Source of the DNA: a virus
DNA: 64,000 nucleotides
Reading direction: 5' to 3' (one strand)
IMG/VR virus record: IMGVR_UViG_3300037755_000305
Coordinates: 64,001-128,000 of that record
Shown here: one piece after another, positions 25,787-60,137 of the stretch
Layout of the letters: each line of letters begins with the position of its first letter
Position numbering within the stretch: the stretch's first letter is position 1
The notes under the pieces: model-generated
The model's database searches: none
The model's input: only the letters and a program-made list of their open reading frames with translations
What the model was told of the DNA's origin: nothing
Translations under genes and position numbers: made by a program

Positions 25787-26377
25787 CTATAGACGGGGAG
25801 TTAGGGAAAGGCTGTCCCAATCGAATTTATTTCCCGGGTCCATGGGATTGGTGGGACCTACATCATCGCCGCTGCCCTCGACACCGCGACCGGCGCGTTC
25901 TTTTTCTTTAGCCTTTTGTTGAGCGGCGGGAGGTGCAGACGGCGCAGACAATCCAGGCCGATAGCCGTTCGTGTCTTTACCAATCATCTGGGATTGACGT
26001 GCAGCCTGTTCTTCAAGCTGTTGCTGCTGTTGTTGAGCAGCCAACGGATCTGGAGGAGTTCCGTCAGTAGGGACACCGGCCGTATCAAGAAGAGCATCCC
26101 AGTTTGTAGCGAAAATTTCTGCGCTGGTGTCGTGTGCTTTAGTGCCGTCCGAATGGTCCACGGCGTCATCATGATCTGTAGGATCATCCATAAGTGTGCT
26201 GGGGAATTCTACATCAGGAGTAAGAACGTCGGGGACCTCTTTATCGGGAGTAGGGGTAGCACTCTCGCCGGTCGTCCAGTTCAACGTAGCAGCAAGGGAT
26301 CTAGAGCCACGAAGGTATTCTTCATGACTCCTGATCCTATCCTGCGTAGTCCAGTTGATCTGATCGACTTTTGCCAT
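25787..26377 (-). CDS. Hypothetical acidic, Pro/Gln-rich protein with LAATLNW motif
   Basis: 196 aa; start overlaps the tube stop codon. Confidence 0.6.
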   Translation of the reverse strand: MAKVDQINWTTQDRIRSHEEYLRGSRSLAATLNWTTGESATPTPDKEVPDVLTPDVEFPSTLMDDPTDHDDAVDHSDGTKAHDTSAEIFATNWDALLDTAGVPTDGTPPDPLAAQQQQQQLEEQAARQSQMIGKDTNGYRPGLSAPSAPPAAQQKAKEKERAGRGVEGSGDDVGPTNPMDPGNKFDWDSLSLTPRL

Positions 26378-26898
26378 TAGCCAGCTACTCGTACTCGGGA
26401 GACGTAAGCAAGCTCACACTCGACCGTTACGATCGCGTCGCCGCCGGATTCCCAGTTATTGTTGTTCTTGGTCTGGAACCAGCAACCGCTGTATTGCCAC
26501 AGCTTGTTAAGTTCTGAACCTCGGAACAAATATTCCTGAGTAACCCACGGTCTAGTCTGGTCCATAAGGTCATCGAAGACCGACCCGAAGCCCAGCGTAA
26601 GCTCAAGCTCCTGATTCCAGACTTCCACGCGAGTGAAACTAACGGTGTAGCCAGTAGCCTGTCCCGGAACATAGTCGATCGGGCGACCCCAGGTTACGTG
26701 AGAAAGCTCACGAACATGGGCACCTTCACGGGTATAGGCATTAGGCTGCCATGACTGAATACGACCGATGATGTTACCGTCTACTACGATAGACATACCG
26801 TGGTACGTCTTGGTCGTAGGGGCACCAGCAGCACCCTGTTCGAGCGGCTGCACGGTAACGTCAAAGGCATTTGTCGCAAAAGGCGATGGGTTCGGCAC
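26377..26898 (-). CDS. Tail tube protein (contractile type)
   Basis: IVVDGNIIGRIQSW...E...P-x-DYVPG...RVEVW...Y-x-GCWF...ECELAY pattern; downstream of the sheath gene. Confidence 0.8.
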   Translation of the reverse strand: MPNPSPFATNAFDVTVQPLEQGAAGAPTTKTYHGMSIVVDGNIIGRIQSWQPNAYTREGAHVRELSHVTWGRPIDYVPGQATGYTVSFTRVEVWNQELELTLGFGSVFDDLMDQTRPWVTQEYLFRGSELNKLWQYSGCWFQTKNNNNWESGGDAIVTVECELAYVSRVRVAG

Positions 26899-26925
26899 TG
26901 GTTACTCTCCCTAAACGAAGTTGGA

Positions 26926-27309
26926 TTACGCTCCGAATTCGGACCTAAGGGCCCGAGCAAGAACGAACTCTCCATGACTTTCCAGAGCTGCTGCTGCTTC
27001 ATTGACGCCTGCGAGCATGTCACTCTTAGGCTCAGGCATGCGCTCTGAGGAAGGGTCTAGGAAAGGGTCTCGCTTCGTCTGATAATCGGCTTCCGGAACG
27101 TTATCGCCGAATTTTCCTACCTCGAAGTCTTGTTCTCCGTTTATTCCAAATCCGAAGAAGTCTTGAAGCAGTTTCTTACCCTCGGGCGACAAATCTACTT
27201 GCGTCGCAAGAACGTCGTAGATCTGGGCTGCAAGGGCGTGTTTTCCAACCTTTTCAGAATCAAGGTGGGCAGCAATACGACAGAGTGTGACAAGTTTTGA
27301 ACCTTGCAT
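26926..27309 (-). CDS. Hypothetical helical protein
   Basis: 127 aa; two L-x-x-x-A-x-x-L-x-x-x-G...LA helices. Confidence 0.55.
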   Translation of the reverse strand: MQGSKLVTLCRIAAHLDSEKVGKHALAAQIYDVLATQVDLSPEGKKLLQDFFGFGINGEQDFEVGKFGDNVPEADYQTKRDPFLDPSSERMPEPKSDMLAGVNEAAAALESHGEFVLARALRSEFGA

Positions 27310-27332
27310 TGTTTAGCTCCTTGCTAAGTGGG

Positions 27333-30300
27333 CTAGTTGCCCGAACCAAAATCATTGGTGTTTACGGTAAACAGACCAAACACACGCTTGATCGGGAATC
27401 TAAGGAAATAAGCATAGAACATGTGATATAGGGTAGGATCTGCCGAATCTCGGAAGACCACCACGTCCGAATCAGGGTCGAACTTCCTTACGTTCTGAGA
27501 AGCGTCCTCATACTGACCGATGATACCGCGACCAAGAAGGCCGAGCAAAATAGCAGAGAGGCTAGCCTTGATGATGCCAACACCGGCCTGAGCGCTTGGT
27601 ACAATCAGAGCGACAACCGAGTTAGCCATCTCTCTACGTACAACCTTGGTAACGAACTGCTTCTGAGTCATGGCTGAAATGAGGTAGAAATCAATGGCGA
27701 ATGTATCAACTGTTGTATCCTCTTCGATACGAACAACTCCGTTACCCAGATCCGTTACGTAGATACTACCAGCATCACCAAGTAAAGCGCTTTCCTTAGG
27801 AGTGTACGTTTGCACACTTGTGAAGCCAGACAAGTTTTTCTTGAGAATGGTGTTTGCCGGGTCGGAGAAACTGGCTGTAAGAGAGGCCAAAGCCGCCGCG
27901 ACAAACGAACCATCCACTGTAACCGATACGGTATCTCCAGACTGTAGAACGATGTTAACCGTAGCCTGCGTAGGCCCTGCTAGAATTCTGGTACCGTGAG
28001 ACGGAGAGCTACCATAAACCCTCAATGTTTTATCCGAAATGTATCGAAGTGTGTCCGGAGTCTGGCGATCTCCAATCGGAGTACCGATCGGCGCACCAAA
28101 CCAATCCAAAGACTCGCGACGTGCGAATGGATCGTTGGCTCTCTCGTTAACTGCAAGTTGGTCGCCCCACGCATCCTGTCGAGACAGAACCACGCGATCC
28201 GTGATGTTGTTTACATTTTCGGTTGAAAGTAGCGCTGTCTTGAAGTCTGTCTGTTGGTACACACCATCTTCATCGGCGTCTGCTACCTGAATGTAGTAGG
28301 CACCAAACACATTGTTATCAAACGCAAGTTCGTTAACAATGTGTAGATGATTGTTGATCGCCGCAGGACCCAAAAGAGTGCGTCCGTCATCACGGTCCAG
28401 AACTAGAATCGGGTTGTTGTACAGTTCAGCACCTCGCAAGAAATTTCCTGTGAAGTAGTAAAGCTGCCCCGGATCGGGCTCTGCCCCCTTAGTTTCGTAG
28501 GTTACAGTTATTGTCTCGGTAGGAGCTACAGGTAGAGACACAAATGGAGATCCAGGGATCTCAACCGAAGATACAGACACTAGACCTGAAGTGGTAACAA
28601 CCGAAACAGTTCCATCCTCTGGAATCTCAACAAGAATGATGTAGGTAGTTCCTGGAATACCGGTAACTGTTCCATTTACATCTGTGATGAAATCGTCCGT
28701 CTCGAATTCTTGTTCTCTCTTCTGTACCAAGCTCCAGTCAATTCGATTCTGGTCATTGGCTGTGAATTCGAATTCGTCTCCAGGCTGTTCTCTATTACCA
28801 GAAAAGCCGTCTCCCCGACACTGGTTACGGAAAGCCAGCTTCACGTTATTCGGGAAGAGAAAGTGCCCGGTGCGCGCGTCAGGGTTCAGTGGATCGAACC
28901 AGTTTTGCTGGCTAGCTTCGTAAACTCCGAAACCGCCTTCTGGCGTATCAGTATTAAACTCACCGACCACAGTACCAACAACATGAGGAACAGCAAGAAC
29001 AGACCCGGTTAGAGGGTCCGTCTGGGCAACTGGTAGACTTACGATGTTGGATGTAGATCCGTGAGTCAGAGTGTAAGTTCGATTATCTTTGCCGCTGTAT
29101 CGTAGGGCGGGAGCCTTGGCAATGAAAGCAAAGTCATCCCCAACTGCGAAGTTAGAAGAGCCAAAGTCGATATCCACATCGACTCCGAAAGCCAAACTCT
29201 CCGTAAGAGTGTTCGGAACAGCTTCGTCAGCGGTAAAAGTTCCATTCGGACCAAGTTCGATGAACGTTGACCATGCGAAAGTTACCGTCCGTGTGGGAGA
29301 CACACCTGCAACACCAACAACCCGCAAAGAGTATCCGGTGTTGAAGTCACGATTGAAATCCGTCGTACTGGCCACAGAGATAGAACCAGAACCGGTATTG
29401 TCGTCACCAACCACAATACCTGTAGTTTCCGCAAACTGGTTCTCGTTCTCGTAACGAGCATCTTCTTCTACCAAGCCTGGGCCAAAGCCGTGGAATGAAA
29501 AGTCGTCCGCAACTGCGAAGTTTCCAGCTCCACCAGGGAATGCAAAATCAAGTTCGATTCCAAGCTCAATTTCAATACCAAACTGATTCGTGCCTTCCAC
29601 AATGTTAATTGTTGGGGCAGACTCAACAGCGTGCAGAGGTCGCGGCGGAAGAGCGTCATTACCACCACCAGTAGGGGTACTGGTGTATGTGAAAGAAGCC
29701 AATCGGTTAGGCGAAGAACCAGAGGCGCTAATGCACGAAAGCTGATAGTATCGGTTGTAGTTATGGTCAAATTGTGAAGACGATGCCTGCGTGATTACAC
29801 CAGCTCCGGTGTTGCCTCCGTCCGCCGTGATAGCTGTAACAACAGAATCAGTGTTCACGTTTCCGTCAACAAGAACCGGAGAAGTTACATCTGTTACAAT
29901 GAAGAAGTCGAGATTCTCTCGGAACTGCGGAGCATCTTCCGCCAGACCTACGTTAACAACTTCTCGAAGCTCCTCGACAGGAATTATGTCCTGCGGGGTG
30001 CGCTCTACTGACTGGTAATCCAAAATGTATGTTGCTGTTGGATCGAAAGCTTCCAGAGAAATAGTTACCTGATTGAATACTCCACTGCCGGGGGAGCTTT
30101 CGGTAAAGCTCCAAAAGTCTGCTCGTACAATCGTACCGTCTTGCTTGTACAGCTTGATGCCGGGAGCATTTTGATCCTGGTCAGCAGCATATTGTAGTGT
30201 AGCTACGTGAGGCGAAAGAGACGTAAACGCGAGCGACTCTTCGAAAATGAAGGATCGACGCATCGCGATGTTCTTGCCAACAGCCAACCGATTACCTACA

Positions 30301-30428
30301 CCAACGAAGGCAGGCAGCCGTGCGTCCGCCGTGAGGTTCGTGGGCCTAGGGATAATGAGCTGCCCAATGTAAACACCGGGCGGCACGTATCGCGTATTAA
30401 CCAGTCGAAAACTAGGATTTGATGCCAT
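27333..30428 (-). CDS. Tail sheath protein
   Basis: 1031 aa; N-terminal Y-x-PPGVYI...LPAFVG and C-terminal sheath-like domain (EEDTTVD...YFLRFPIKRVF); upstream of the tube gene. Confidence 0.82.
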   Translation of the reverse strand: MASNPSFRLVNTRYVPPGVYIGQLIIPRPTNLTADARLPAFVGVGNRLAVGKNIAMRRSFIFEESLAFTSLSPHVATLQYAADQDQNAPGIKLYKQDGTIVRADFWSFTESSPGSGVFNQVTISLEAFDPTATYILDYQSVERTPQDIIPVEELREVVNVGLAEDAPQFRENLDFFIVTDVTSPVLVDGNVNTDSVVTAITADGGNTGAGVITQASSSQFDHNYNRYYQLSCISASGSSPNRLASFTYTSTPTGGGNDALPPRPLHAVESAPTINIVEGTNQFGIEIELGIELDFAFPGGAGNFAVADDFSFHGFGPGLVEEDARYENENQFAETTGIVVGDDNTGSGSISVASTTDFNRDFNTGYSLRVVGVAGVSPTRTVTFAWSTFIELGPNGTFTADEAVPNTLTESLAFGVDVDIDFGSSNFAVGDDFAFIAKAPALRYSGKDNRTYTLTHGSTSNIVSLPVAQTDPLTGSVLAVPHVVGTVVGEFNTDTPEGGFGVYEASQQNWFDPLNPDARTGHFLFPNNVKLAFRNQCRGDGFSGNREQPGDEFEFTANDQNRIDWSLVQKREQEFETDDFITDVNGTVTGIPGTTYIILVEIPEDGTVSVVTTSGLVSVSSVEIPGSPFVSLPVAPTETITVTYETKGAEPDPGQLYYFTGNFLRGAELYNNPILVLDRDDGRTLLGPAAINNHLHIVNELAFDNNVFGAYYIQVADADEDGVYQQTDFKTALLSTENVNNITDRVVLSRQDAWGDQLAVNERANDPFARRESLDWFGAPIGTPIGDRQTPDTLRYISDKTLRVYGSSPSHGTRILAGPTQATVNIVLQSGDTVSVTVDGSFVAAALASLTASFSDPANTILKKNLSGFTSVQTYTPKESALLGDAGSIYVTDLGNGVVRIEEDTTVDTFAIDFYLISAMTQKQFVTKVVRREMANSVVALIVPSAQAGVGIIKASLSAILLGLLGRGIIGQYEDASQNVRKFDPDSDVVVFRDSADPTLYHMFYAYFLRFPIKRVFGLFTVNTNDFGSGN

Positions 30429-30564
30429 GAAGGGTTCCCCTCAGTTCAGAACTTGTTCTATCTCTAAGTCAGCGCCCGAGGCGTTAGCCATGGCGGAATA
30501 AACCTTCTCTAACTACTTAGATAATACCTAAAGTTAGAAATCTCCGACAGACCACAGGTTTTCA

Positions 30565-31620: not shown

Positions 31621-31638
31621 CCTTTGTAAGTCTCAGAG

Positions 31639-32106
31639 TTAGTCTGATTCGACACTGAAATCCTTTCCGGGCAAAATTAGTAAATCCCGGGGGTCGGGCA
31701 CGTTGAGCCCACCATTTCTAGCCATTTCTTCGACCTGTGGAAGCATCTCTTCCATCCTGGCCATAATCTCTTCAGAAGTCAAAGCCCCCTCGGGGAGTAT
31801 GGGACTCAAGTCTTCGGCAAACGTGAATTCCGGGTGTACTACCGGAGGGTGAAATTTCCAAACTCCAGATAGTCTGTGGGCCTCACCCAGGATAACTGCC
31901 AGATTGTCATTGACGAAGTACGGAACATTCTTGGGACGCTTCTCTGGATCTGGATCCATAGATTCTTTTTCGCATTCCAGACACATGATTCGAGGACAAA
32001 TTTCCATATCATACTTTCGATTGAAATCGGGTTCGTAAGATCCATGTTTACCGCATCGGTATTCGTAGTCACTCATCTTTGCAGTCCTCGGATTGTAGGA
32101 TTTCAT
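31639..32106 (-). CDS. Hypothetical protein
   Basis: 155 aa, Cys/His-containing N-terminus. Confidence 0.55.
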   Translation of the reverse strand: MKSYNPRTAKMSDYEYRCGKHGSYEPDFNRKYDMEICPRIMCLECEKESMDPDPEKRPKNVPYFVNDNLAVILGEAHRLSGVWKFHPPVVHPEFTFAEDLSPILPEGALTSEEIMARMEEMLPQVEEMARNGGLNVPDPRDLLILPGKDFSVESD

Positions 32107-32329
32107 TGGCTTTCTTTAGTGCAACACGCTTCAACTTCTCAGAGGAAATGAATTTTTGTCCCAAGTATAGCTCCCATTCTTCCCCAACGAGGTCGATTCG
32201 TACCCTTTTACCTGTTTTTCTACAGACGCCCTCATAGCGCCCAGCACGCAGTCGTCTCATAAGGCGCTGGGGTGCATCTGCTTCGATTTTCCAATTTAGT
32301 TCTGCTGCTAGCATTCTATTGTATCCCAA
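32069..32329 (-). CDS. Small basic protein with LAAELNW motif
   Basis: Likely start ATG 32314 (MLAAELNW). Confidence 0.55.
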   Translation of the reverse strand: MGYNRMLAAELNWKIEADAPQRLMRRLRAGRYEGVCRKTGKRVRIDLVGEEWELYLGQKFISSEKLKRVALKKANEILQSEDCKDE

Positions 32330-32339
32330 TTAGAGATAA

Positions 32340-32588
32340 TTACTCGCCGCAGAAGTCTATACCTTGCTGGAGAGCCAGATCTACATAGCTCAGTAGAGCC
32401 TTGCCTTCACAACAGCATACTGCTGCGTTGTCTGACATCATAGATCTCAGATTCTCTGACATCCAGCGAATATCTCTACGCCGCGCCGCCGGTACTTTGA
32501 CCGCTTCCGCCAGCTTTTCAATCTCTGCCATAAGAGTGTTTCCAGCAGGTCGTGTTTTCCAGTTAATGTCCCTAATGTCCACTTTCAT
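32340..32588 (-). CDS. Hypothetical protein
   Basis: 82 aa ORF with SD (gaaagga), directly after conserved element copy 4. Confidence 0.6.
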   Translation of the reverse strand: MKVDIRDINWKTRPAGNTLMAEIEKLAEAVKVPAARRRDIRWMSENLRSMMSDNAAVCCCEGKALLSYVDLALQQGIDFCGE

Positions 32589-32597
32589 TTCCTTTCC

Positions 32598-32628
32598 GTC
32601 TCTGCTACCAAACCGTAGAGCAGTGATT
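32598..32628 (-). promoter_or_regulatory. Conserved 31-nt upstream element, copy 4
   Basis: ACGTAAT-AATCACTGCTCTACGGTTTGGTAGCAGAGAC; 3 mismatches; 9 nt before ATG 32588. Confidence 0.75.
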
Positions 32629-32756
32629 ATTACGTGGTGTCACAGAAGAGATAAGGTAAGAACCTCAGAATTGTCGATCTTACTCCTGTTCATACAGTCC
32701 AGTCTATTCAATAAGTTCTGCTCATACAGTAGATCAGCACTAATCCGATATTTAGT

Positions 32757-33314
32757 TTAGACTGTCCAGTTTAGTCTAGCTGCAATACCTATATCCAAGG
32801 GAATGTTTGTTTTTTCCTCGTCACTGGAAGAGAAAACAACAGTGTCGAAAGTTATCTCTGTTCCCTCAAAATCATCAGCACCAGAATAAGAACTGCCGCA
32901 ACCAGGATTCACGTAAGCAATGGTCACATGAGGCTTGTATTCTGGATAGTCAGATTCGTGGTCTACCTCATCCCATAGAAGTTTTTGTAGATCGCCCAAA
33001 TCTTCAGACTCTACAGATATTTTGACGACATCGTAATCATCGTTTTCGAAAATAGACACTTTCCCAAGAGTAGCCCTAATCTGTGGCTTTCCCTGCAACA
33101 AGTCAATTACTTGTTGTGGTGCGTCATCTACAATGCCGTACAAAATGGTTATGTGGGGGTTGTCTTCGCGACCTTGATTTCCATCCTTATCGAAAATTTC
33201 TTCGTCAGGGATGTTCGTTTTTCCCCAATCCATTATCCGCTTAGCTATGTTTTTAGGAATGTTGACCTGCGTAGAGGCGTAATCATAATCCGCCGTTATC
33301 CACCGGAGTTTCAT
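32757..33314 (-). CDS. 2H phosphoesterase (T4 gp57B/Acb1-like)
   Basis: Two H-x-T motifs (PHITILY, PHVTIAY); DYPEYKPHVTIAY resembles the second motif region of T4 57B. Confidence 0.8.
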   Translation of the reverse strand: MKLRWITADYDYASTQVNIPKNIAKRIMDWGKTNIPDEEIFDKDGNQGREDNPHITILYGIVDDAPQQVIDLLQGKPQIRATLGKVSIFENDDYDVVKISVESEDLGDLQKLLWDEVDHESDYPEYKPHVTIAYVNPGCGSSYSGADDFEGTEITFDTVVFSSSDEEKTNIPLDIGIAARLNWTV

Positions 33315-35554: not shown

Positions 35555-36220
35555 TTAGTTCTCCTGAGGTGTGAAGTCTTGGTGCAACAATTTGAACGTA
35601 AACTCCAACACAGCCTTGTTTGTTAGTGAGACCGCAACTCCGGTCTGTTTGTTTCGTCGTGTAAGAGACTGTAGTCCCTTTAGCAAAGTTACTTTTGTGA
35701 GCTGATTCCACATCCACAAAAGTTCAGCTTCAGCGTGCGCCATCCCAAGTTCTCCCGGTACCTCCGGGACTTGTAGGGATTTGAGTGTTTCTTCGGCCCT
35801 GAAGATTGGCGCACCGTAGATCTCTATTTCGAAATCTGCGGACTCTCCTGGGATTGTCTTCGCGATTGTCGTCTTGGGCAAGAAAGGGAGAGACTCCATC
35901 CATGCTGCACTCACCGGCTCCAGATTCGTGATGAGAAAATTCTGTGGATTTCCATCCACAATGTTTACCCCCTCTGCTGGTGCTCCAGTATAGACGCATG
36001 TTTTTTCTCCATGGAAATGATCCACAATGGTAGCCACATCAATCGGCTGCGGCTTTCCATCCCCACCAACAAGTCGGGGGTAGCTCGGGCTCATGACGCC
36101 AGCAGGCAAACCGTTGATTGTAAACCCGCCGCCTTCAATCCCCTGCGGATCGAATATAAGAGATTTGTAGTTCATAGGTATTGTGCTAATCATAAAAGAA
36201 TCTCCTTGACGTATTTCCAT
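35555..36220 (-). CDS. Hypothetical protein with degenerate HNH-like segment
   Basis: CVYTG...VNIVDGNPQNFLITNLEPV resembles HNH but lacks the catalytic His. Confidence 0.5.
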   Translation of the reverse strand: MEIRQGDSFMISTIPMNYKSLIFDPQGIEGGGFTINGLPAGVMSPSYPRLVGGDGKPQPIDVATIVDHFHGEKTCVYTGAPAEGVNIVDGNPQNFLITNLEPVSAAWMESLPFLPKTTIAKTIPGESADFEIEIYGAPIFRAEETLKSLQVPEVPGELGMAHAEAELLWMWNQLTKVTLLKGLQSLTRRNKQTGVAVSLTNKAVLEFTFKLLHQDFTPQEN

Positions 36221-39006
36221 ACCAATTCCGGGGTGTTAGCAACTACGCAGCTATTTATAGTATTCTTCGGATACTCCTCTTCCGGTAGCGTAGTTATTGG
36301 GTGTGATACTAAGTTAGAACACGGGGGCTTCGGGTGGGCGCTCATGTGGTTGTATTCTCTGTAACATGGCTGACAGGACTTTGTGGGTCCGCCATTGCCC
36401 ATATCTCTAGTCCAAAGCCCTCCGTTCACCAGATTGATGTTCTGATCGTAACCAGAGCCGCAAGGATGCGTGGAGCCCCAGAGAATCACAGATTTCTTAG
36501 CAACTGCCTGAGAGGTGTGGTTGAAAATAGAGTCTCCACCAATGAAGAGTACAGAAAACCGCTGTACGGCAGCGGCGTGCTTGATCGAGGGCGTATCCAA
36601 GCGCTCGGCACCCGGAACAAGAGGTTCACTTGGAGTACCGATCTGTACTACTTCATAGCCAGCTTCCTTGATGCGACCCACAAGATCTTCCCATGCGTCG
36701 ATAGGCCAATTCTTTAGAGGAGACCAGCCAGCCCGAGTGTGGATTACGACTTTACCTGTACCATGTATAGCACCGTAATCAAGGTGTTCCTGCCTGAACC
36801 CGATAGATAGATCCGTAGATACGGGAACCCCAGCGTCTTCACAGAAGAAGTGCGCCAAATGCTGTCTCATAGGCTTCTCAGGATACTGCTCTTTTAGGGG
36901 ATACTGGAAAGCCACAACCTTGTCTGCCTTAGGTAGGTCTTCCGTCCGCTTCAAAATCTCTTGCCAGTTGTTCTCCTCTACTGTAACTATCTCGTCAACG
37001 TAGGGATTATCTTCGATAGCGGAAATTGAACTAGGGTGGCACACATATCGAACATGGTACCCCTGTTGCTTTAGACCTTTGCACGCTGCCGTGGACATTA
37101 GGATGTCGCCCAAAGCACCTGGACGCATGACTTGTGCAACTTTCTGTGTAGGGGACCCGGAGCGTTCCTGTCCGCGTCCGGAACGCAAAGCGGTAAGGCG
37201 CGCCTCCCAATCTTTGTCTGGTCCACCAATTCTTTGGGCCGCAGCTTCACCAAACTGGATAGCCTTGTCAATTTCCCCAAGATGCTCCCAGCACCAGCTA
37301 ATCAATCGGAACGGTTGGTCCTTGTAAGCTCCCGTATTCAAGAACATCAATGTGTTTGGCATTGTCTGAGAAGCCGCCTGTACCGCCCAAGATATACAAG
37401 CTTTGTAGTCTTTCTGTATATATTTCAGCCTAGCAATGGCCAAATAGGGTTCAGCCCAGTGGGAATTGGTAGCCAAAGCGTTGCAGTATGAACGTAGAGC
37501 TTCCGGCAATTTTCCTAGATTTTGATTACAGTACCCCTGATACATCCAGGCCCAAAATCGTTCATCGTGCCAACCAAGATTCTCGTCTAGATACACTTGG
37601 TAACGCTCCAAAGCCTCTTCGTTGCGCCCTCCCTCACGAAGACCGTTACCCAAGTAAAATAGGGTGCGTCCCTTATCGTCGTGGGTTCCAGGGCAATACG
37701 AACAAGGTTGAGGACCTGCGGCCTCGGCTTCCAACAAAATGCGAATATTTCGCCCTGCGGCGTCCTTAGGTTTAGGCAAATGTCGAAGAGTTATATCGTC
37801 ACACTTCAACTTCATGCCCTGGTAGCCACCCAGTGAAACATACTCGTGACATTTATCGTGAAAATGCGGCTTGAAAATTTCGCCCTTGTGGTTTGGACGG
37901 GCTTCGTTTCGCCAAAGTCGAAGATGGAAGAAAGTATCGCCTCCGTATATTAGCCTCCAATCCTGGGGATGGTCCGGTTTCTCGTCTAAAAGAGCTAAGA
38001 TCTTGGCGGGGGCGTCCCCAGATAGAACATCATCACAATCCATCCAAGCTACGTGAGTTCCTGTACATGCCATGACAGCTTCGTTCTTGGCTCGGGCGAA
38101 GTTATCGTCCCAAAACCCTTCGATGATTTTTGTCTTGATACCTGTACGATCTCCGAACGCTTTGATGATATCGGGGGTAGAGTCGTCGCAGTTGTTTAGA
38201 TAAACGACAATCTCCCAAGCTAGTGGCTCGATACTATCGAGCATTCTTCCAATGACCTCTTCCTCGTTGCAGGATACAACGGCAAAACTGATGCGAACAT
38301 CTTCTGCAATACGGCATTGCCAGTCTATTTGTCCTACCTCCGGCTGTTCCCATTCGTCAAAAATGCGAAGCCCCTCCTGCTTCGCTAGTCTGTGGAAAGA
38401 TGCTTTGGAGAGAAGAATTGGATGAACTTGGTAGTGCTCATCCGTGAGGTGAATGTCGATCCCCTCTGTATTGACTTCCGGTGTTCTAATGTATAGGACA
38501 CCTTTGTCCGACAACAATGTGCGAATCTTATGCAACGCAGCGGCAGGATCAGCAAAGTGCTCAATACAGTGAACGAGGGTGATAAGGTCAAACTTCTTGT
38601 CGCCAAAATCGTGCTCAAGAAAGTTGTCGATAATCATCGGGACGCCCAGCTCGTGCCCAAACTCAATAGCCTCTGGAAAACCGTCAATCCCTACAACTTC
38701 ATCGACACCCAAATCTTTGAAACACTTCAAAAGATAGGGGTACTTGGAGCCAACGTCCAGCACAGATTTAGGCTTATGGGCGCGAGTTAGCCTTGCGGCC
38801 AAGTCCTGATTCAGGAGACAGGCAACCTCAGTCATAGCCTCCCGTCCCGTTTGGGGCTGGAGATCAGATTCATACCTGAAAACAGGCGGCGGATACTGTG
38901 CCCATAGGCCACAGGTATTGCAGGATAGGTAGGGGGTCAGGCCAGCCGTGGAGCTTTCAGTGCTGGAGAATTCCCCGCCACCGCAAACGGGGCAGATACT
39001 TGGCAT
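36190..39006 (-). CDS. Multidomain enzyme: Zn ribbon + SAM methyltransferase + GT2 + TPR + GT9
   Basis: CPVC/CNTC; VLDVGS, ITLVHCIEH; ISFAVVSCNEE, WMDCDD (DxD); TPR-like YLGNGL/YQGYC/EPYLAIA; RPGALGDILM, FIGGDSIFNH, LWGST. Confidence 0.85.
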   Translation of the reverse strand: MPSICPVCGGGEFSSTESSTAGLTPYLSCNTCGLWAQYPPPVFRYESDLQPQTGREAMTEVACLLNQDLAARLTRAHKPKSVLDVGSKYPYLLKCFKDLGVDEVVGIDGFPEAIEFGHELGVPMIIDNFLEHDFGDKKFDLITLVHCIEHFADPAAALHKIRTLLSDKGVLYIRTPEVNTEGIDIHLTDEHYQVHPILLSKASFHRLAKQEGLRIFDEWEQPEVGQIDWQCRIAEDVRISFAVVSCNEEEVIGRMLDSIEPLAWEIVVYLNNCDDSTPDIIKAFGDRTGIKTKIIEGFWDDNFARAKNEAVMACTGTHVAWMDCDDVLSGDAPAKILALLDEKPDHPQDWRLIYGGDTFFHLRLWRNEARPNHKGEIFKPHFHDKCHEYVSLGGYQGMKLKCDDITLRHLPKPKDAAGRNIRILLEAEAAGPQPCSYCPGTHDDKGRTLFYLGNGLREGGRNEEALERYQVYLDENLGWHDERFWAWMYQGYCNQNLGKLPEALRSYCNALATNSHWAEPYLAIARLKYIQKDYKACISWAVQAASQTMPNTLMFLNTGAYKDQPFRLISWCWEHLGEIDKAIQFGEAAAQRIGGPDKDWEARLTALRSGRGQERSGSPTQKVAQVMRPGALGDILMSTAACKGLKQQGYHVRYVCHPSSISAIEDNPYVDEIVTVEENNWQEILKRTEDLPKADKVVAFQYPLKEQYPEKPMRQHLAHFFCEDAGVPVSTDLSIGFRQEHLDYGAIHGTGKVVIHTRAGWSPLKNWPIDAWEDLVGRIKEAGYEVVQIGTPSEPLVPGAERLDTPSIKHAAAVQRFSVLFIGGDSIFNHTSQAVAKKSVILWGSTHPCGSGYDQNINLVNGGLWTRDMGNGGPTKSCQPCYREYNHMSAHPKPPCSNLVSHPITTLPEEEYPKNTINSCVVANTPELVWKYVKEILL

Positions 39007-52083: not shown

Positions 52084-53019
<936 letters not shown>

Positions 53020-53048
53020 TGTAGTCTCCCTTTAGGGTGGCAGACCTA

Positions 53049-53369: not shown

Positions 53370-53379
53370 TCTGGGTCTC

Positions 53380-53622
53380 CTATACCATGGATTTCATGTT
53401 GGTGCGTAGTGTGCGAAGCTTGTCCAAAGTGGAACTTAATTCTGTTTTTATCTGTTCGATTTGTTCCGAAATGTTATCAGGTGTCTTTATTTTCTTGACA
53501 GCTTTAAGAAGTTGAACGGCGTCTGAAAGTTTGTCTTCCGATTCTTCAATTCGAACTTTCCACGAGTCGCTTTTGCGTTCAAACTGATTGAAAGCTTCTA
53601 TTGACCAGTCAAATTTTTGCAT
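53380..53622 (-). CDS. Small coiled-coil protein
   Basis: 80 aa with heptad-like Leu/Ile spacing. Confidence 0.55.
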   Translation of the reverse strand: MQKFDWSIEAFNQFERKSDSWKVRIEESEDKLSDAVQLLKAVKKIKTPDNISEQIEQIKTELSSTLDKLRTLRTNMKSMV

Positions 53623-54282
53623 CGTACTGTAACTTCCCGGGCGCTTTTCTTTAAGTGTTCTTCTACACTAAGAGGCTGCAAATTCGTGTAGTGGCATGCC
53701 TCTAAAAATTGTTTCCTGTCTGTAAGATCAAAATTTGCCAAGGGCTGAATATGATCTATTTCCCAATATGTTCCGTGATTCTCCCAGCTCATTTCCGGGG
53801 TGAATTGCACCTCTAAACAAGAGATAAGATGCTCTACAGAACAACCCAGGTCTGTTACTGCTGAGCCAGCTTTCTGCCCTTTCTTGTCTTGTCTTAGGTC
53901 TAAGGCTGTGTATATTCGGTTTCTAAGCAGTTTTCGGAGACGATAATTAGGATCGCTTTGGTATCTCTCTAATTCGTATTTTCTCTGGTTGTCTCTGGTT
54001 CTTTCTTTGTTGTCTTCGTACCAACGCTTTTGTTGCTTAGCTGTTTTTTCTGGATTTCTTTTAGCCCATCTTAAATTCTTTGCGCTATGCTTTTCCGGAT
54101 TGTCTTTGGCCCATTTTAGGGATCTGTCTCTATCTTTTGCAGCAAATTCAGGATCTTGGTACTTCTGCCTTAGATCGGAATTCATACATTTCCGACATCT
54201 GCTTTTCAGTCCACTAGGTCTGTCAGAACGTTTGCCGAAATCAGATTTTGGCAAATCCTTTACAAAACTTAAGCGTTTTCAT
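53598..54282 (-). CDS. HNH homing endonuclease-like protein, N-terminus apparently frameshifted
   Basis: SWENHG-x-x-WEIDHIQP...CHYTNLQPL; AT-rich. The ATG at 54282 is one base out of frame with the body (ORF 53598-54254). Confidence 0.8.
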
Positions 54283-54306
54283 ACAATTGCTTTAGTCTTT
54301 TGCAAC

Positions 54307-54338
54307 AAAAAGAGGCCGGAGGCACTGCCTCCGGCCTC
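54307..54338 (-). terminator. Intrinsic terminator after the major capsid gene
   Basis: 12-bp stem gaggccggaggc/gcctccggcctc with 3-nt loop, followed by a U5 tract on the - strand. Confidence 0.85.
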
Positions 54339-54417
54339 CTCTTTTCGAGATGTTCAACTATCGCCGTAACTAAAATTGAACTAATGCGCAATTTTTAGCT
54401 ACAAGTTAGCAGAATCC

Positions 54418-55551
54418 TTAGACTCTGTTACCTCGTGTAACGGCGCGAGAGTTAACAATACTCATTCCTTCGATCGTTTCCATAAACCAACCGCGTTCCG
54501 GCTTGCCCTGGTTGTACTTGTTGATCGACTCGGTAGCAAGTTCCTTACGCTGTGTGATACCACCAAGGGTCTGCGGAGCACCTACGAAGTAAACTTCGCC
54601 GGGCTGTAGAACCTGCAAGGTATCGTGGCGGAAGGCGTCCGTGATGAGGTTAACACCAAGGATGCTGCCGAGACTACCTTCAAGAACGATCTCGTGCTTC
54701 GATACCGGATCGAACCAAGTGCTGAACTCGGTGTCAGCAATGATGTCGTCCCAGAGGTCGAACGCGATGACCGCACCAGTTACCGGGATACCCCACCGAG
54801 CGATCTGCGTTCGCATGGTGGAGAACACCGTAGGCGTGAAGGTGTTGAACAGGAACAGGTCGTTGGAGGCACCGGCTGCGGCGTTAACTAGGTTACGCCA
54901 CACGTTATCCTCGTTGACCATGATCTGCTCAAGACCGTCCTGGTACTTGTCGTCCAGAAGATCGCCAGAAGCCTGCTCGATCTCCTTGTCCTCGATCGTG
55001 ATGTGCGCGATCATGTAGAACTCGGGCGGGTAGATGTAGTATTGGCGAACCGAGGAAGCAATGACGTTCGGATCGCTTGTAGCGAAGAACGAAATTACAT
55101 CCTTGCGTCGGACGCGCAATCGACCAGTCTCACCCTTACCAAGGGGCTTGATGAGAAGGGTCTTACGGGCGAAGCCTTCACGACCCAGGGTTTCCCAGAT
55201 CTCTTCACCGATTACCTCGCCGAGAACCTGCCAACCTTCACCGTTCTTGTCGGCGTAGGCAGCCTCGACCAGCTCACGACGAGCAGAAACGACATCGCCG
55301 TACTGCTCCTGAGCTGAAGCCTGTCGGACATCACCGACGGCTACTGCGCGCTGAAGCGAGCTAATTGCCTGCATCAGTTCACGCTTACTTCCTGCGTTGA
55401 TCTCGCCATTACCTGCAACGGCAGACTCAGTGTTTGACTGAATCACGGTGCCTGCTCGGGTCGTTCGGCCAGCCTTGTGGCCACCGTCCGTGAGCGCGTC
55501 CCCGTTGCGACCGACATAAGCCGGGCGAGCAAGATAGGGATTCTTAGACAT
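54418..55551 (-). CDS. Major capsid protein
   Basis: About 377 aa after SD aggag. GFARKTL...I-x-x-x-EI-x-Q-x-x-x-DLL...EQI-x-x-x-ED pattern; follows scaffold and decoration genes; strongly biased codon use; terminator downstream. Confidence 0.8.
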   Translation of the reverse strand: MSKNPYLARPAYVGRNGDALTDGGHKAGRTTRAGTVIQSNTESAVAGNGEINAGSKRELMQAISSLQRAVAVGDVRQASAQEQYGDVVSARRELVEAAYADKNGEGWQVLGEVIGEEIWETLGREGFARKTLLIKPLGKGETGRLRVRRKDVISFFATSDPNVIASSVRQYYIYPPEFYMIAHITIEDKEIEQASGDLLDDKYQDGLEQIMVNEDNVWRNLVNAAAGASNDLFLFNTFTPTVFSTMRTQIARWGIPVTGAVIAFDLWDDIIADTEFSTWFDPVSKHEIVLEGSLGSILGVNLITDAFRHDTLQVLQPGEVYFVGAPQTLGGITQRKELATESINKYNQGKPERGWFMETIEGMSIVNSRAVTRGNRV

Positions 55552-55599
55552 TTGTTTTCTCCTATTGTAGTCCAAGAGTGAATAATAACTGGAGTTCTT

Positions 55600-55666
55600 T
55601 ACACCGTGAGCGTTCAGGTAATCCGAGATAAATCAGCCTCCCCCGCTCAGGGGAGGTAAAGGTGTA
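55600..55666 (-). ncRNA. Candidate pseudoknotted RNA element in the capsid gene leader
   Basis: Three complementary pairs: 55600-605/55661-666, 55637-643/55650-656, and loop 55644-649 with 55607-612. Confidence 0.5.
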
Positions 55667-55669
55667 TCA

Positions 55670-55697
55670 AGCGGGACGGCCTTCCGACCGTCCCGCT
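55670..55697 (-). promoter_or_regulatory. GC-rich hairpin after the decoration gene stop
   Basis: agcgggacgg/ccgtcccgct perfect 10-bp stem; no clear U-tract. Confidence 0.55.
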
Positions 55698-55710
55698 GTC
55701 ATGCTACTTC

Positions 55711-56451
55711 TTAGTTGCCGCCGATATTGAAGGCGACACCCAGAAGCGGGTTGTTCACGTTCGGAACACTGACGACGCGAGCGTCAAGAGCAGTACCACC
55801 AGAACCCGTAAGGATACCGGCGTCACCCGAGTGGATGGTTCCCGGAGCAGCACTCCAGTCTACAGCAGCGTCAAACTGGTCGGTGAAGATTTCACCGACG
55901 CCGTGACCGACGCCAACCTGACTGAACAGAGTGGAAGCTTCGTTGTTGATGTTGCGCTGGTAGAACTTGAGTCGAGCCTCAGCAACCGTGAGGTTGTACC
56001 GATAGATTACGACAATCGTCTTACCAGCTTCGTCCGAGTGGAAGGCCAGAAGACCAGTAGAAACATTTACGTTTACGTCACCGGATACGGCAGCGCCTAC
56101 GTCAATGTTGTCCATCTTGGTCGAGCCGTCCATGGCAGTTAGCTGTGCCGTGGAACCGGTACCGTCACCCGAAACAAGGTTGTTGTTACGGAGCTGTACC
56201 TCGTAGGGAGCCGTGGACGGAACCGTCACACTCTCTACTTCGGACGTGGTGGCGTTGTCAGCGTTATCGCGAATTGCGAAACCGGCAATCAACAGAGAGG
56301 CGTCGTTAGTGGCAGGAATTACTGCCTCGGCGCCGGTTGCTGCGTCAAGAACCGACTGAAGAAGAACACCTTCTTCGGTGATGACAGAACCAGCCTGGAC
56401 TGGCTTCTCCAGCACGATGCTGAAGTGGGATCGCTTTAGGTCGAAAGACAT
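55711..56451 (-). CDS. Putative capsid decoration/cement protein
   Basis: 246 aa beta-rich ORF between scaffold and MCP, with the same biased codon use. Confidence 0.6.
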   Translation of the reverse strand: MSFDLKRSHFSIVLEKPVQAGSVITEEGVLLQSVLDAATGAEAVIPATNDASLLIAGFAIRDNADNATTSEVESVTVPSTAPYEVQLRNNNLVSGDGTGSTAQLTAMDGSTKMDNIDVGAAVSGDVNVNVSTGLLAFHSDEAGKTIVVIYRYNLTVAEARLKFYQRNINNEASTLFSQVGVGHGVGEIFTDQFDAAVDWSAAPGTIHSGDAGILTGSGGTALDARVVSVPNVNNPLLGVAFNIGGN

Positions 56452-56482
56452 TGTTTAGTTTCCTTTTGTCTTGTGGTCTAGC

Positions 56483-58777
56483 TTAGCTGGACCGGAAGGT
56501 TGACAATCGAACCCGCTGTCGAAGAGATGCTGTCACATCGTCGCGGGAAGCCTTCACCGGCGAAGCCGGGTTCGTGAAAGGCATGTTCCCCGCTTCGAGC
56601 TGCGAAGCAAAGTCTTCGTGCATGGGAAGTCGGTTCCCGGTAGAGGCACTCGCCTCAACTAGGGAGTTGCTCTCAGGGATTGCCTTGGCGATTGCGTCAC
56701 GCGCTTCGTCAGGCAGGTCCATGAGTTCTTCAGCCTTGGCAAGAACAGCAGCGAAGAACGGTACGGAACCCTCTTCGAAACTGGCCTCAATGAGCCCAGC
56801 AGCGTCTCGGACGCCGATGCGTCCAAGTTCACTCCAGAGCGCAGCCTTGAGCTGATGATCCTCGCCACGGAAGAAGTTGTTGTTGTAACCGGCTAGAGCA
56901 ATTCGTGTTGCGGCCATGAAGCGGTCACGGAGATTGCCGACTGCTTCAGCCAACTTCTCGTCCATTTCTGCTTCTACCTTAGCGCGAATCTTCTCAGCCA
57001 ACTTACCAGCTTCGATCTTTGCGGCGTAGGGCTTTGCGTTGATGGCACTCAGAACGTCAACAACTCCGACCTTTGCCATTGCCTGAGCGATGTTCTCAGC
57101 GTAAGGACCGGAAAGGAACGTCGAGCGTACCTCTTCGGGCTTCGGCTGAGAAGCAAGCTCGACTCGGGCGACGGGGCGGCCGTTGATGTCGATGTTCCAG
57201 TGCGGATTGTCTTGATCGGCGTTGTAGAGGGACATTACTACGTCCTCTGCTGCGACGATACCGATGTCCTCGAAATTCGAGAGCATTTCTACATGAGCGG
57301 ATTCTGCTGGGTCCATACCGTGCTGAGGCTCCATAAGCTCCTGCTGGAGCCACTCTTCGAGTGATTGTTCCATACCTGCATCGGGACCGGCAGCCGGAGC
57401 CATCGGCGCCGGAGCGCCGCCGCCGAGATCGCCACCCGGCATACCCATGCCTTCAGACGGAATCTCGGGCTCGTTTTCCGGCAGAACCGGAGGAATCCCA
57501 GGTACCATCTCGTCACCCAGTGGCATTTCCTGTGGGGCTTCCATGCTTAGAGGATCGACTGGAGCCTCGGGAAGTCCAAGCGGATCGGCCGTCGGGTCTG
57601 GCATTCCAGGAACCGGAGGAGCCTCTACAGGAGCAGGGCCCCCCATCGGGTCCACTGGAGGCATTGCTGTAGCCTTCTTACGTGCAGCAGTAGGTGTGTT
57701 GCTCTCCTTGGCTCGATCGTCATCCTTGGCGGAAAAAGAATCAGAATCGACAGCGTTGCTATCTACCGAGGGAGAACCAGTCTGCTCGTCCGTCTCTGAA
57801 CCTGCCTGAGCAGGGTGACGCTCCGGGTCAAGGAAGGGAACGTCGTCCAGGCTTACAACCTTGGGCTCTTCAAAACCATCGTCAGAAGAGGCGGGCTTGT
57901 GGGACGGGGAACCGTTCTGGGGTCCATACAAGGTGATGTCGTCAATGCCTACCTCTTCCTTGTTTTCGTTCACCTGATCGACAGCCTGTACATACCACGC
58001 CTTGATCTGCTTGGCGAGCTTCGGGTTTGACTTGGCTTCAGCACTGTTCAGGAAGTTCTTAGCAATCGTCATCTTGCGGGCCGTGACGAATTTCTTGAGC
58101 CAAGAAAGAACTTTGGTCGTCTGCTCAGCCTTCTCGGGAGCAGCGGCCTCAGCCGTGTGAAGATAGGCAAACCCGTAACGGGCCTGGGCCTCACGAGCTG
58201 CCTCAGGGGTGGGCTTCCATGCGTCAAGACCGGCACGAACCTGCTTGCGCTGTGCGTGCTTGGGGTTTCGGTCGAGCCACTGAAGAACCTTGACTGCCTT
58301 CTCGATGTTGGCATCAGCGTCTTCCGCCATGATCTTTCGTAGGTCGGCAATGTCGTCGGTCGTAAGAGCGTGTACAGAAGCGTGCGGGTCCTTAGGGGCC
58401 ACAGAAAGCTCCTCCTCTAGTGTGTCGGGAAGCTGAACACTGGGGCCACCGCCGCCATTGTTCTTCTGCTGCTCACCGGCGTCATCGTCGGCAGCAGCCA
58501 GGGTCTCAGGAATCTCTGGGTTGCCTTCTACGGCGGGCTTACCGTCGTAAGGAGGACCAACTTCGCCAGCTTCCTCGTTAGAACCCTGCTCATAAGCTCG
58601 GGTTTCGAGATCAGGCGTGTCGGGGGAGTTGGTGTCAACCAGCTTTACCACGTCGTCTGCAATCTCGACATCAGTATCGTGCGTGCCGCCGCCGGGTCCG
58701 ACTGCGGGATCAAGAGCGCCAGGATCACCGGCTGTTGCCTTGTGGCCAAGAGCCTTACGTACTTTGTTCAAATCCAT
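56483..58777 (-). CDS. Putative prohead scaffolding/core protein
   Basis: 764 aa; acidic, Pro-rich disordered blocks and a C-terminal coiled coil; lies between protease and MCP. Confidence 0.6.
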   Translation of the reverse strand: MDLNKVRKALGHKATAGDPGALDPAVGPGGGTHDTDVEIADDVVKLVDTNSPDTPDLETRAYEQGSNEEAGEVGPPYDGKPAVEGNPEIPETLAAADDDAGEQQKNNGGGGPSVQLPDTLEEELSVAPKDPHASVHALTTDDIADLRKIMAEDADANIEKAVKVLQWLDRNPKHAQRKQVRAGLDAWKPTPEAAREAQARYGFAYLHTAEAAAPEKAEQTTKVLSWLKKFVTARKMTIAKNFLNSAEAKSNPKLAKQIKAWYVQAVDQVNENKEEVGIDDITLYGPQNGSPSHKPASSDDGFEEPKVVSLDDVPFLDPERHPAQAGSETDEQTGSPSVDSNAVDSDSFSAKDDDRAKESNTPTAARKKATAMPPVDPMGGPAPVEAPPVPGMPDPTADPLGLPEAPVDPLSMEAPQEMPLGDEMVPGIPPVLPENEPEIPSEGMGMPGGDLGGGAPAPMAPAAGPDAGMEQSLEEWLQQELMEPQHGMDPAESAHVEMLSNFEDIGIVAAEDVVMSLYNADQDNPHWNIDINGRPVARVELASQPKPEEVRSTFLSGPYAENIAQAMAKVGVVDVLSAINAKPYAAKIEAGKLAEKIRAKVEAEMDEKLAEAVGNLRDRFMAATRIALAGYNNNFFRGEDHQLKAALWSELGRIGVRDAAGLIEASFEEGSVPFFAAVLAKAEELMDLPDEARDAIAKAIPESNSLVEASASTGNRLPMHEDFASQLEAGNMPFTNPASPVKASRDDVTASLRQRVRLSTFRSS

Positions 58778-58926
58778 TTTGAATATCCTCTTTTTAGAAC
58801 TTTGGTTCTCTGGGCTCGGGATCGCTGTTTATTAGATGAGGAATCAATGGACCCACACCCGAGCCTTATTCATAGCAGGTGGATTTTGCTGCTGGTAACA
58901 TATATATAACCACTCAAAAGGATGAA

Positions 58927-59379
58927 TTATCCTCTGTTTTTTCTACCGCGCATCAAAGCGCTTCCATAATCACTTAGAGCACCGCAAGCAGGGCAATGAC
59001 AATTATTGGCGTGATCCGAAGACGTTATATAGGAAAAGGCACAAGAATCGCAAGAATGCAGCAATTTCGAGAACTTAGAGGTAGACAGAGCCTTCTGTAC
59101 ATCCTCGTAAGAGATAGGCCCTTGGTATTTCATGGGCTTACCGTTTAGCGGGCTGAAAATCTCGCTAGTCATGCGCGAAGAGATGGTATTTTCTCCGTCA
59201 GAGAACAATCCATAACTGAAGCCGCCATCCGGGGGCGGACCGAAATATGAATAACCACCTTCTTCACCGATAGGTTCGAGGGCAACGGGTTTTGAAACAT
59301 GTGGGTTATAGTGGTACCCTCCGTGACCGTAACCAACGACCTTCCAGTTAAGCGATTCTGCTAGCTTCTTAGTATACAT
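58927..59379 (-). CDS. Hypothetical protein with LAESLNW motif and C-terminal Zn ribbon
   Basis: CDSC and CPAC pairs. Confidence 0.6.
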   Translation of the reverse strand: MYTKKLAESLNWKVVGYGHGGYHYNPHVSKPVALEPIGEEGGYSYFGPPPDGGFSYGLFSDGENTISSRMTSEIFSPLNGKPMKYQGPISYEDVQKALSTSKFSKLLHSCDSCAFSYITSSDHANNCHCPACGALSDYGSALMRGRKNRG

Positions 59380-60137
59380 TACCAGTTAAATTCTCCCACC
59401 ATAGAATAGGACTTGAAAGACTTACCGGGAATGCTGCGCTTCGTAACACTGTTTTCGGCGTCTTCAATGCGCTTAGCGCCCTTGGGTTTCTCGTGTGTCT
59501 TTACGCCCCTGTCTATGATTGACTTTAGACCCCAAGCCGGGTGCTCGCCGTGCTCGCCGTGCTCGCCGGTGTCGTCAAAAGTTTCAGACTTGTGCGTAGA
59601 CCAATTCAATTTTGCTGCTACACTTCCCATCATAGTTCTCTCGTAGTAGTCTCTGTCTCCGCCTCGTTGCCACTGTGGAGGAAGAGGTGCGGTATACTCG
59701 CTAGGGCTATCAATCAAATTTAACAACTGGTCATTAGGAACGTACTCATCGTCCAACATGATTTCGTTTTGGTCATCTTGCATCCAACCCTGGTTATCGG
59801 GTGTTGTGTTCGGGTTGCATTTGCCAATCTTGGGATCTTCTCCCTCTTCGCACGGTCGGGCCTCGGAAACGTCAGTACGCCAGCTCAATAGCTCAGCCAT
59901 AGGAAATCCTACACCTCGATAAGTTTCGTCTATTTGTGTAAGCTCTTCACTGACTGTGTGATCCGTCTTGTGCTTTTCCTTACGATTATAACCTTTTCCG
60001 CCTTTTTTACTGCTTTGTGGTCCGGCACTATTTTGGTTCACATCCTTATGCACTTCACGACTGGCTCGTCGAAGATCCTTAGAGATTTTCGGAGTCTTCT
60101 GTCCGCTGCCTTGTCTTCGTGTAGGTCCCTTTCCCAT
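59379..60137 (-). CDS. Hypothetical hydrophilic protein with VAAKLNW motif
   Basis: 252 aa; basic N-terminus, acidic middle; lies in the head module. Confidence 0.6.
   Translation of the reverse strand: MGKGPTRRQGSGQKTPKISKDLRRASREVHKDVNQNSAGPQSSKKGGKGYNRKEKHKTDHTVSEELTQIDETYRGVGFPMAELLSWRTDVSEARPCEEGEDPKIGKCNPNTTPDNQGWMQDDQNEIMLDDEYVPNDQLLNLIDSPSEYTAPLPPQWQRGGDRDYYERTMMGSVAAKLNWSTHKSETFDDTGEHGEHGEHPAWGLKSIIDRGVKTHEKPKGAKRIEDAENSVTKRSIPGKSFKSYSMVGEFNW

Follow-up and report, generated by a model that had tools for sequence, protein, structure and literature searches.

Why should proteins that have nothing else in common carry the same short peptide? The question is raised by IMG/VR record IMGVR_UViG_3300037755_000305, a viral contig of 184,111 bp (G0; completeness 69% by CheckV) that belongs to an uncultured jumbo phage, and in particular by the 64,000 nucleotides at its bases 64001–128000, which were analyzed as a whole and are referred to here as the window. 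A first-pass annotation of the window, made from its letters alone, had noticed the pattern [LIV]-A-[AE]-x-L-N-W in five proteins and proposed a packaging or docking tag that loads cargo, including a possible anti-defence enzyme, into the phage head. We followed the motif through the window, the complete contig and related phages. In the form of a nine-residue consensus, it occurs in seven or more protein families that are unrelated to one another, on flexible N- or C-terminal ends or in disordered loops. It is likely to be a portable docking peptide; delivery of its carriers into the virion is a more tentative reading, which we weigh below against the alternatives.

Copies of the motif in the window

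Genes were called as greedy picks of open reading frames (ORFs) made in this analysis, and features described in this report lie on the minus strand of the window unless stated otherwise. All five copies reported by the first-pass annotation are present and in frame. LAATLNWTT (26270–26296) forms residues 28–36 of p196, a protein of 196 amino acids (aa) whose gene (25787–26377) comes directly after that of the tail tube. LAAELNWKI (32285–32311) is found at the N-terminus of p86 (86 aa; gene 32069–32329), at residues 7–15 or, if counted from an internal ATG, at residues 2–10; the ATG at 32314 is the probable true start. IAARLNWTV (32760–32786) makes up the last nine residues of a 185-aa 2H/Acb1-like phosphoesterase (gene 32757–33314; the 2H enzyme), LAESLNWKV (59338–59364) corresponds to residues 6–14 of p150 (150 aa; gene 58927–59379), and VAAKLNWST (59595–59621) to residues 173–181 of p252 (252 aa; gene 59379–60137). 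Similarity among the carriers is confined to the motif. We also recovered a full copy that had escaped the first reading, MAELLSWRT (59874–59900), at residues 80–88 of p252; it is designated copy 1 of that protein, and VAAKLNWST copy 2. Codons differ between copies and between orthologs, with the invariant leucine at position 5 (Leu5) encoded by CTT, CTA, CTC, CTG, TTA or TTG, and the constraint therefore acts on the peptide, as had been proposed. A DNA-level repeat or regulatory element was rejected on the same grounds, given the divergence of codons among paralogs and orthologs and the use of all six Leu5 codons.

How strongly does the window alone support the motif? For the pre-specified pattern, five matches were observed in the whole proteome (58,500 residues) against 0.006 expected, a naive P of 8e-14. 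In a de novo search, however, the bare four-residue seed A..LNW, present in 5 proteins (p = 10^-5.4), was no more extreme than the best seeds of shuffled proteomes, and the flanking (free) columns added only P = 0.02 by identity. The fixed-pattern count overstates the case, and the window on its own is suggestive rather than overwhelming. Since the naive significance fails the de novo control, the argument rests on conservation in orthologs which, together with new copies in proteins outside the defining set, provides proof at the sequence level that is independent of window statistics.

Conservation in a clade of uncultured jumbo phages

Related IMG/VR contigs were found with sheath and capsid queries. 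By identity of the major capsid protein, the close relatives are G1 (267 kb, 97%), G2 (210 kb, 94%), G3 (78 kb, 92%) and a 28-kb fragment (97%), and the more distant ones are G5 (240 kb) and G6 (392 kb), both at ~54%. The motif is retained by each ortholog of all five carrier families, with variation at the x positions, in the flanks and in the codons. Orthologs of p196 read LAASLNWTT, IAHHLCWAT and VAYNLCWAT (phi-A-x-x-L-[N/C]-W-[T/A]-T, with phi denoting a hydrophobic residue); those of p86, LAETLNWKV, LASELNWNI and LAKNLNWNT; those of the 2H enzyme, LAARLSWSV, IAARLNWRI and IASNLNWKV; those of p150, LAHRLNWKV, IAKTLNWSV and LAGGLKWSV; and those of p252, IAADLTWST, IVADLSWST and IAADLSWST. 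Taken together, the orthologs on four contigs of related phages and 185 homologs from metagenomes yield the 9-mer consensus phi-A-x-x-L-[N/S/H/D/T/C]-W-x-[V/T/I], in which Leu5 and the tryptophan at position 7 (Trp7) are invariant. Conservation of the motif reaches down to ~50% protein identity, and the carriers are 38–79% identical between genomes whose capsid proteins are 92–97% identical.

We counted a strict pattern, [LIVM][AV]..L.W.[TVI], across the genomes. Observed and expected numbers were 7 and 0.41 in G0, 8 and 0.63 in G1, 6 and 0.41 in G2, and 3 and 0.12 in G3. The more distant relatives G5 and G6 contained none, against 0.57 and 1.0 expected, respectively, and detectable orthologs of all five carriers were absent from both. 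The motif is specific to a single clade of uncultured jumbo phages. Counts per position at eight independent sites show a few fixed positions with variable neighbours; their invariance is partly by construction, because the extraction pattern required [L/F/M]-x-W, and it is the family alignments that support it independently.

Partial copies accompany the full ones. The p196 protein has a half motif at its N-terminus (INWTT, 26345–26371; FNWTT in G1) and a second one near its C-terminus (FDWDS, 25811–25837). A degenerate copy, DIRDINWKT (32553–32579), stands at the N-terminus of a conserved 82-aa ORF (p82; 32340–32588), whose orthologs in G1–G3 read D-L-[N/S]-W-K, and the half motif FDWSI (53599–53613) at that of an 80-aa protein (gene 53380–53622), replaced by FNWSI in G1 and FNWEI in G2. 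These forms, which follow phi-polar-W-x-[V/T/I], are all conserved in relatives. At the very end of p252 is FNW (59382–59390), for which the family consensus is A-F-[N/D/Y]-W. The weaker echoes named by the first-pass annotation, in p196, p82 and the end of p252, are genuine features of these proteins. A scan with a position-specific scoring matrix revealed no strong copies beyond those listed in this report.

Other candidates and readings were tried and discarded. A sixth look-alike, IAKSINWSI (62259–62285) in a superoxide dismutase (SOD)-like protein, belongs to the conserved C-terminal helix of Sod_Fe_C (Pfam E = 7e-15, residues 119–198). An N-glycosylation sequon, N-x-S/T, does not fit, since Lys is common after the Trp and orthologs replace the Asn by S, H, D, T, C or K.

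The 82-aa ORF deserves a separate remark. It is 62–74% identical in G1–G3 and is probably the real gene, and a longer overlapping ORF on the plus strand (32401–32760, 119 aa) is probably spurious.

The motif resides on flexible ends and disordered segments

The position of the motif within its carriers varies. The N-terminus bears it in p86, p150, p82 and the S-adenosylmethionine (SAM)-lyase-like protein described below, and the C-terminus in the 2H enzyme; in p252 (two copies), p196 and a CCA-adding/Fic protein it is internal. The 2H enzyme, a single-domain protein of 185 residues that matches Pfam 2_5_RNA_ligase2 and Acb1, shows most clearly how the motif is attached. We compared 102 2H homologs. 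An extension of 10–12 residues after the last strand occurs in 35 of them, all with at least 52% identity, and the motif can be read at its end in 33; homologs at 47% identity or less end right after the last strand and have no tail. Within the tagged clade, three linker residues between the domain and the motif have entropies of 1.9–3.1 bits, and the motif Leu and Trp have 0 bits, like invariant residues of the fold. By alignment, then, the motif is a terminal add-on to enzymes whose more distant homologs lack it. Several tagged homologs bear an additional full copy at the N-terminus, where the window enzyme has a half motif only.

The AlphaFold model of the 2H enzyme agrees with this picture. 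Its mean predicted local distance difference test score (pLDDT) is 89.5, with 150 of the 185 residues at 90 or higher, and blocks within residues 11–170 average above 90 except for residues 41–50 (78). At the ends, residues 1–8 fall below 50, residues 171–180 average 70 and residues 181–185 average 52; secondary structure is unassigned after residue 172.

In p252, the prediction is of disorder throughout (mean pLDDT 52.6, predicted TM-score 0.17), and both copies lie in segments with pLDDT below 50. Nonetheless, conservation across 62 homologs extends to both copies and to the A-F-[N/D/Y]-W at the C-terminus. Copy 2 is embedded in a strongly conserved block, and some homologs start exactly at this copy; at copy 1, an alignment of 27 family members shows little or no variation in P79, A81 and W86. 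The N-terminal copy of p86 is retained down to 58% identity, and in full-length members of that family the Leu and Trp again have 0 bits of entropy while the x positions vary. Searches of the ESM Atlas with p86 and p150 gave no usable lead.

Further observations concern the p252 and p150 genes. The p252 orthologs of G1 and G2 (L012:15019-15786 and L032:3858-4730) have an extra N-terminal segment of ~45–60 residues (MPWQSKKQQRW or MPYKSEKQRRW) with no counterpart in the window ORF, which reflects either a different start or an N-terminal shortening of the window copy. The p150 orthologs of G1 (L012:16498-17388) and the 28-kb fragment contain a mini-intein (Pfam Intein_splicing, E = 5e-11), located right after a conserved GYGHGG-HYNPHV segment that is itself downstream of the motif; those of G2 and G3 have frame breaks in the intein region. 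Insertion of an intein hints at an important conserved site in this orphan protein.

Copies in proteins outside the defining set

New copies were found in proteins that had played no part in defining the motif. A single-domain, 148-aa SAM-lyase-like/DUF3293 protein carries N-terminal copies in G1 and G2 (LAYQLLWKT and IVQQLLWKT); G0 does not have this protein, and only in this clade does the domain bear the N-terminal copy. A HMMER search of 1.84 billion representatives returned 352 matches to its residues ~42–148. Among the best 150 of these, an N-terminal motif segment was recognizable only in P0186 (50% identity, SAHALSWKI), whose first residue, Ser, lies outside the strict pattern, and none of the 150 contained the strict pattern itself. 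In homologs, the domain is fused to Mu_F, with or without Phage_portal; other fusions join it to RelA/SpoT, Zeta toxin and ParB-SNF2 modules.

Outside the window, at residue 508 of a 1490-aa CCA-adding/Fic protein (G000:C1:144519-148991), we found LADGLDWTV. This copy is near the start of a G0-specific insertion bearing a Fic-containing tail, and the CCA-adding enzyme orthologs of G1 and G2 have neither the insertion nor the motif.

As a separate point, the metagenomic proteins P0217 and P0195 are natural portal-MuF-SAM-lyase-like and MuF-SAM-lyase-like fusions, respectively, and suggest that domains of this type are commonly delivered from virions.

A probable docking peptide and its candidate receptor

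What does the motif do? Short linear motifs lie in flexible segments and have few fixed positions amid variable neighbours, and both features were found here (flexibility was modelled for the 2H termini and for p252). Because few residues are fixed, the context is flexible, position is immaterial and a disordered protein carries several copies, we consider it likely that the 9-mer acts as a portable docking peptide, a short linear motif whose copies all bind at one shared site. Each copy would dock into the same site on a single receptor. The alternation L-x-W-x-[V/T/I], with its beta-branched end, suggests that binding may occur by addition of a short strand to that site.

The receptor would most likely be a part of the assembling particle, either the prohead core or the inner capsid surface, and the capsid protein is a candidate. 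The tag would then load cargo for co-injection with the DNA, comprising the 2H/Acb1-like phosphodiesterase, the SAM-lyase-like enzyme and the Fic-bearing insertion. The site would be shared by p252 as a multivalent core protein; it is disordered and combines two copies with the terminal FNW, and its gene immediately follows that of the head maturation protease. Several lines of evidence argue for this reading: the fusions of SAM-lyase-like domains, the occurrence of 2H domains in polyvalent proteins, the precedent of phage T4 and the position of the genes, most of which are in morphogenesis operons, with p252 and p150 between the head protease and capsid genes. We give slightly less than an even chance to the proposal that the tag is a virion-loading signal, a non-covalent replacement for portal/MuF fusions with p252 as a multivalent core protein. 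With more reserve, we entertain its general form, in which a position-independent nine-residue "postcode" loads any protein into the virion for injection and p252 is a core scaffold using the same site.

Several observations weigh against virion loading. The p196 protein belongs to the tail module, not the head module, and in the relatives the gene of the SAM-lyase-like carrier is in a non-structural region, so that the first-pass statement placing most copies in virion-module genes is not true of every carrier. Unlike the T4 tag, the motif is not confined to N-termini, and no consistent protease site comes after it. No homologs of p252, the sole carrier tested in this way, were found in cultured phages. 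Finally, 68 G0 proteins, including a glycosyltransferase that contains tetratricopeptide repeats (TPR), are as clade-specific as the motif, and phylogenetic profiling therefore cannot single out a virion receptor. Of the original interpretation, a portable peptide tag under protein-level purifying selection is well supported, and the packaging of cargo, including an anti-defence enzyme, into the head is circumstantial.

The closest precedent is in T4, where a short capsid targeting sequence (CTS), common to diverse internal counter-defence proteins, directs them to the prohead core and leads to their injection with the DNA (PMC3012670, PMC7411985). Like the CTS of IPI–III and Alt, the 9-mer is conserved on unrelated, fast-evolving carriers, as our ortholog comparisons show. 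The T4 sequence, in contrast, is always N-terminal, comprises 10–20 residues and is removed by gp21 at its end, whereas the 9-mer is N-terminal, C-terminal or internal and sometimes occurs two or three times per protein. No conserved Glu-containing site was seen after the motif in orthologs. Judged by these properties, the 9-mer resembles the T4 CTS in logic but lacks its strict N-terminal position and, it seems, the cleavage site that follows. The two sequences themselves are presumably not similar.

Polyvalent proteins, in which several effector domains share one polypeptide with a MuF or portal anchor, provide a second point of comparison. The 2H domain is one of their domains for which packaging is predicted, with injection serving to counteract the nucleotide signalling of the host (PMC5512222). 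The effector types are the same as here, 2H phosphoesterase and SAM-lyase-like domains, and have likewise been proposed to be packaged and injected (PMC5512222); the carriers studied here differ in being stand-alone, single-domain proteins (185 and 148 residues) with a nine-residue tag, and only their homologs are found in fusions.

Loading by a short peptide is also familiar from encapsulins and bacterial microcompartments, in which short, terminal peptides on flexible linkers dock diverse enzymes inside a shell that, in encapsulins, has the HK97 fold. Those peptides serve cellular compartments, not virions. We take the encapsulin cargo-loading consensus to bear no resemblance to the 9-mer. 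The only HK97-type shell gene here is that of the phage capsid protein, and a weak EncFtn-like match in a 764-aa protein of the morphogenesis operons is below threshold. In Staphylococcus phage 80alpha, the capsid and scaffold proteins share an N-terminal motif that is cleaved by the host L27 protease Prp; this is also a short motif near the N-termini of unrelated phage head proteins, but it is strictly an N-terminal cleavage site, while the 9-mer is found at C-termini and internally as well. No description of the 9-mer was found in the literature, and searches on DUF3293 and on PaBG head assembly brought up nothing relevant.

Should the motif prove to load virions, T4 would no longer have the only well-defined capsid targeting peptide: the 9-mer would be the second, and the first to work from either end or from inside a protein. 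Giant phages could then make injected counter-defence cargo out of ordinary enzymes with no need to fuse genes and, should the postcode form be correct, stand-alone counter-defence enzymes (2H/Acb1-like, SAM-lyase-like, Fic) could be swapped by gain or loss of the tag. A simple sequence rule would predict the injected proteome of an uncultured phage clade, and the tag would offer laboratory systems a compact means of bringing foreign proteins into phage particles. Even if the receptor is located elsewhere, the set of carriers would define a previously unseen interaction network that links 2H/Acb1-like, SAM-lyase-like and Fic-bearing CCA enzymes with several orphan proteins.

Alternative explanations

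What points to a portable, flexible docking peptide fits equally well if the common site is on a hub outside the virion, either a host factor such as a chaperone, protease adaptor or clamp-like hub, or an intracellular assembly of the phage, for example a complex for tRNA repair or processing. RNA ends are the substrates of the 2H and CCA-adding enzymes alike, which such a hub would bring together, and one carrier gene, as noted, is outside the structural region. Against this, the majority of carrier genes reside in morphogenesis operons, the gene of the multivalent carrier p252 adjoins that of the head protease, and other proteins combine the SAM-lyase-like domain with virion anchors in one chain. 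To our knowledge, and in the absence of a systematic search, none of the hub-binding motifs of bacteria (clamp, tail of the single-stranded DNA-binding protein, ClpX tags) resembles the 9-mer. We regard a non-virion hub as possible but unlikely.

The copies might instead bind one another, with p252 and the single-copy carriers co-assembling into a condensate or core that needs no folded receptor. The disorder and multivalency of p252 and the presence of tags at both ends of some 2H enzymes are in keeping with such a homotypic zipper, but about four fixed residues in a 9-mer make a weak basis for self-association, and AlphaFold left the ends of the 2H enzyme unpaired (with the qualification that the N-terminus of the window enzyme has only a half motif). 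This makes a zipper improbable.

Little probability also attaches to the proposal that the motif is a recognition signal for a protein-modifying enzyme of the phage, a 938-aa methyltransferase-GT2-TPR-GT9 protein, whose TPR would bind the peptide while Ser or Thr residues nearby are glycosylated. The TPR and glycosyltransferase domains are indeed combined in one protein of the same operon that is as clade-specific as the motif, Ser or Thr is frequent after the Trp, and in p196 the motif precedes a Thr/Ser/Pro-rich stretch. Positions 8–9, however, are not always Ser/Thr (KV in p150; KI or KV in many p86 members), soluble 2H and SAM-lyase-like proteins would be odd targets for glycosylation, and the collagen-like fibres, which are the obvious substrates, have no motif.

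Could the motif be a recognition or cleavage site for the prohead protease, encoded next to p252? Many head proteins of T4 and phiKZ-like phages are processed at short motifs (PMC7411985), and adjacency of the genes is suggestive in the same sense. Several copies, however, start at residue 2, a position at which cleavage would achieve nothing, one ends two residues before the C-terminus, and no consistent site follows the motif in orthologs. The 9-mer also has no counterpart of the invariant Glu in the T4-like/SPN3US protease consensus. In those proteases a Glu is needed at P1 (PMC7411985). On account of the copies at residue 2 and two residues before the stop, this variant of the first-pass proposal is very unlikely.

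An origin by chance, or by convergence of an ordinary structural element without common function, could invoke the four-residue seed that stays within the range of shuffled proteomes and the one look-alike explained by plain SOD homology, but it is effectively excluded by the ortholog data: the motif is present in all orthologs of all carrier families and in new proteins, sits as a terminal add-on behind a hypervariable linker, and scores zero in the more distant relatives.

Genome setting of the carriers

The minus strand of the window holds the morphogenesis operons. The head maturation protease gene (60144–60884; phrog_18299, E = 7e-55) is directly upstream of p252, and homologs of its product are annotated as head maturation protease in Erwinia and other jumbo phages. 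It is followed in order by p252, p150, the 764-aa protein (56483–58777), a 246-aa virion structural protein (55711–56451) and the major capsid protein (54418–55575; phrog_2522, E = 1e-64), which shares 37% identity with the major head protein of Pseudomonas phage PaBG and ~35% with its counterparts in other jumbo phages. Further along are collagen-like fibres, the methyltransferase-GT2-TPR-GT9 enzyme (36190–39006), the 2H enzyme and p86, and then the sheath (27333–30428), the tube (26377–26898), p196 and a tail chaperone/tape-measure region. Sequence searches of the PDB with the 764-aa protein and the head protease gave no match, a search for related loci with the 764-aa protein as sole query found nothing, and the PaBG paper does not mention a portal, scaffold or protease useful for comparison.

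A 323-aa protein of the head operon (61869–62840), whose gene lies two positions upstream of that of the head protease, contains the C-terminal domain of Fe/Mn superoxide dismutase (E = 7e-15). This SOD-like gene is kept in G1–G3 and is not present in G5 or G6. Structural proteins differ widely in identity across G0–G3, with values of 92–97% for the capsid protein, 88–97% for the tube, 74–86% for the sheath and 40–80% for most others, an unusually steep contrast in evolutionary rate.

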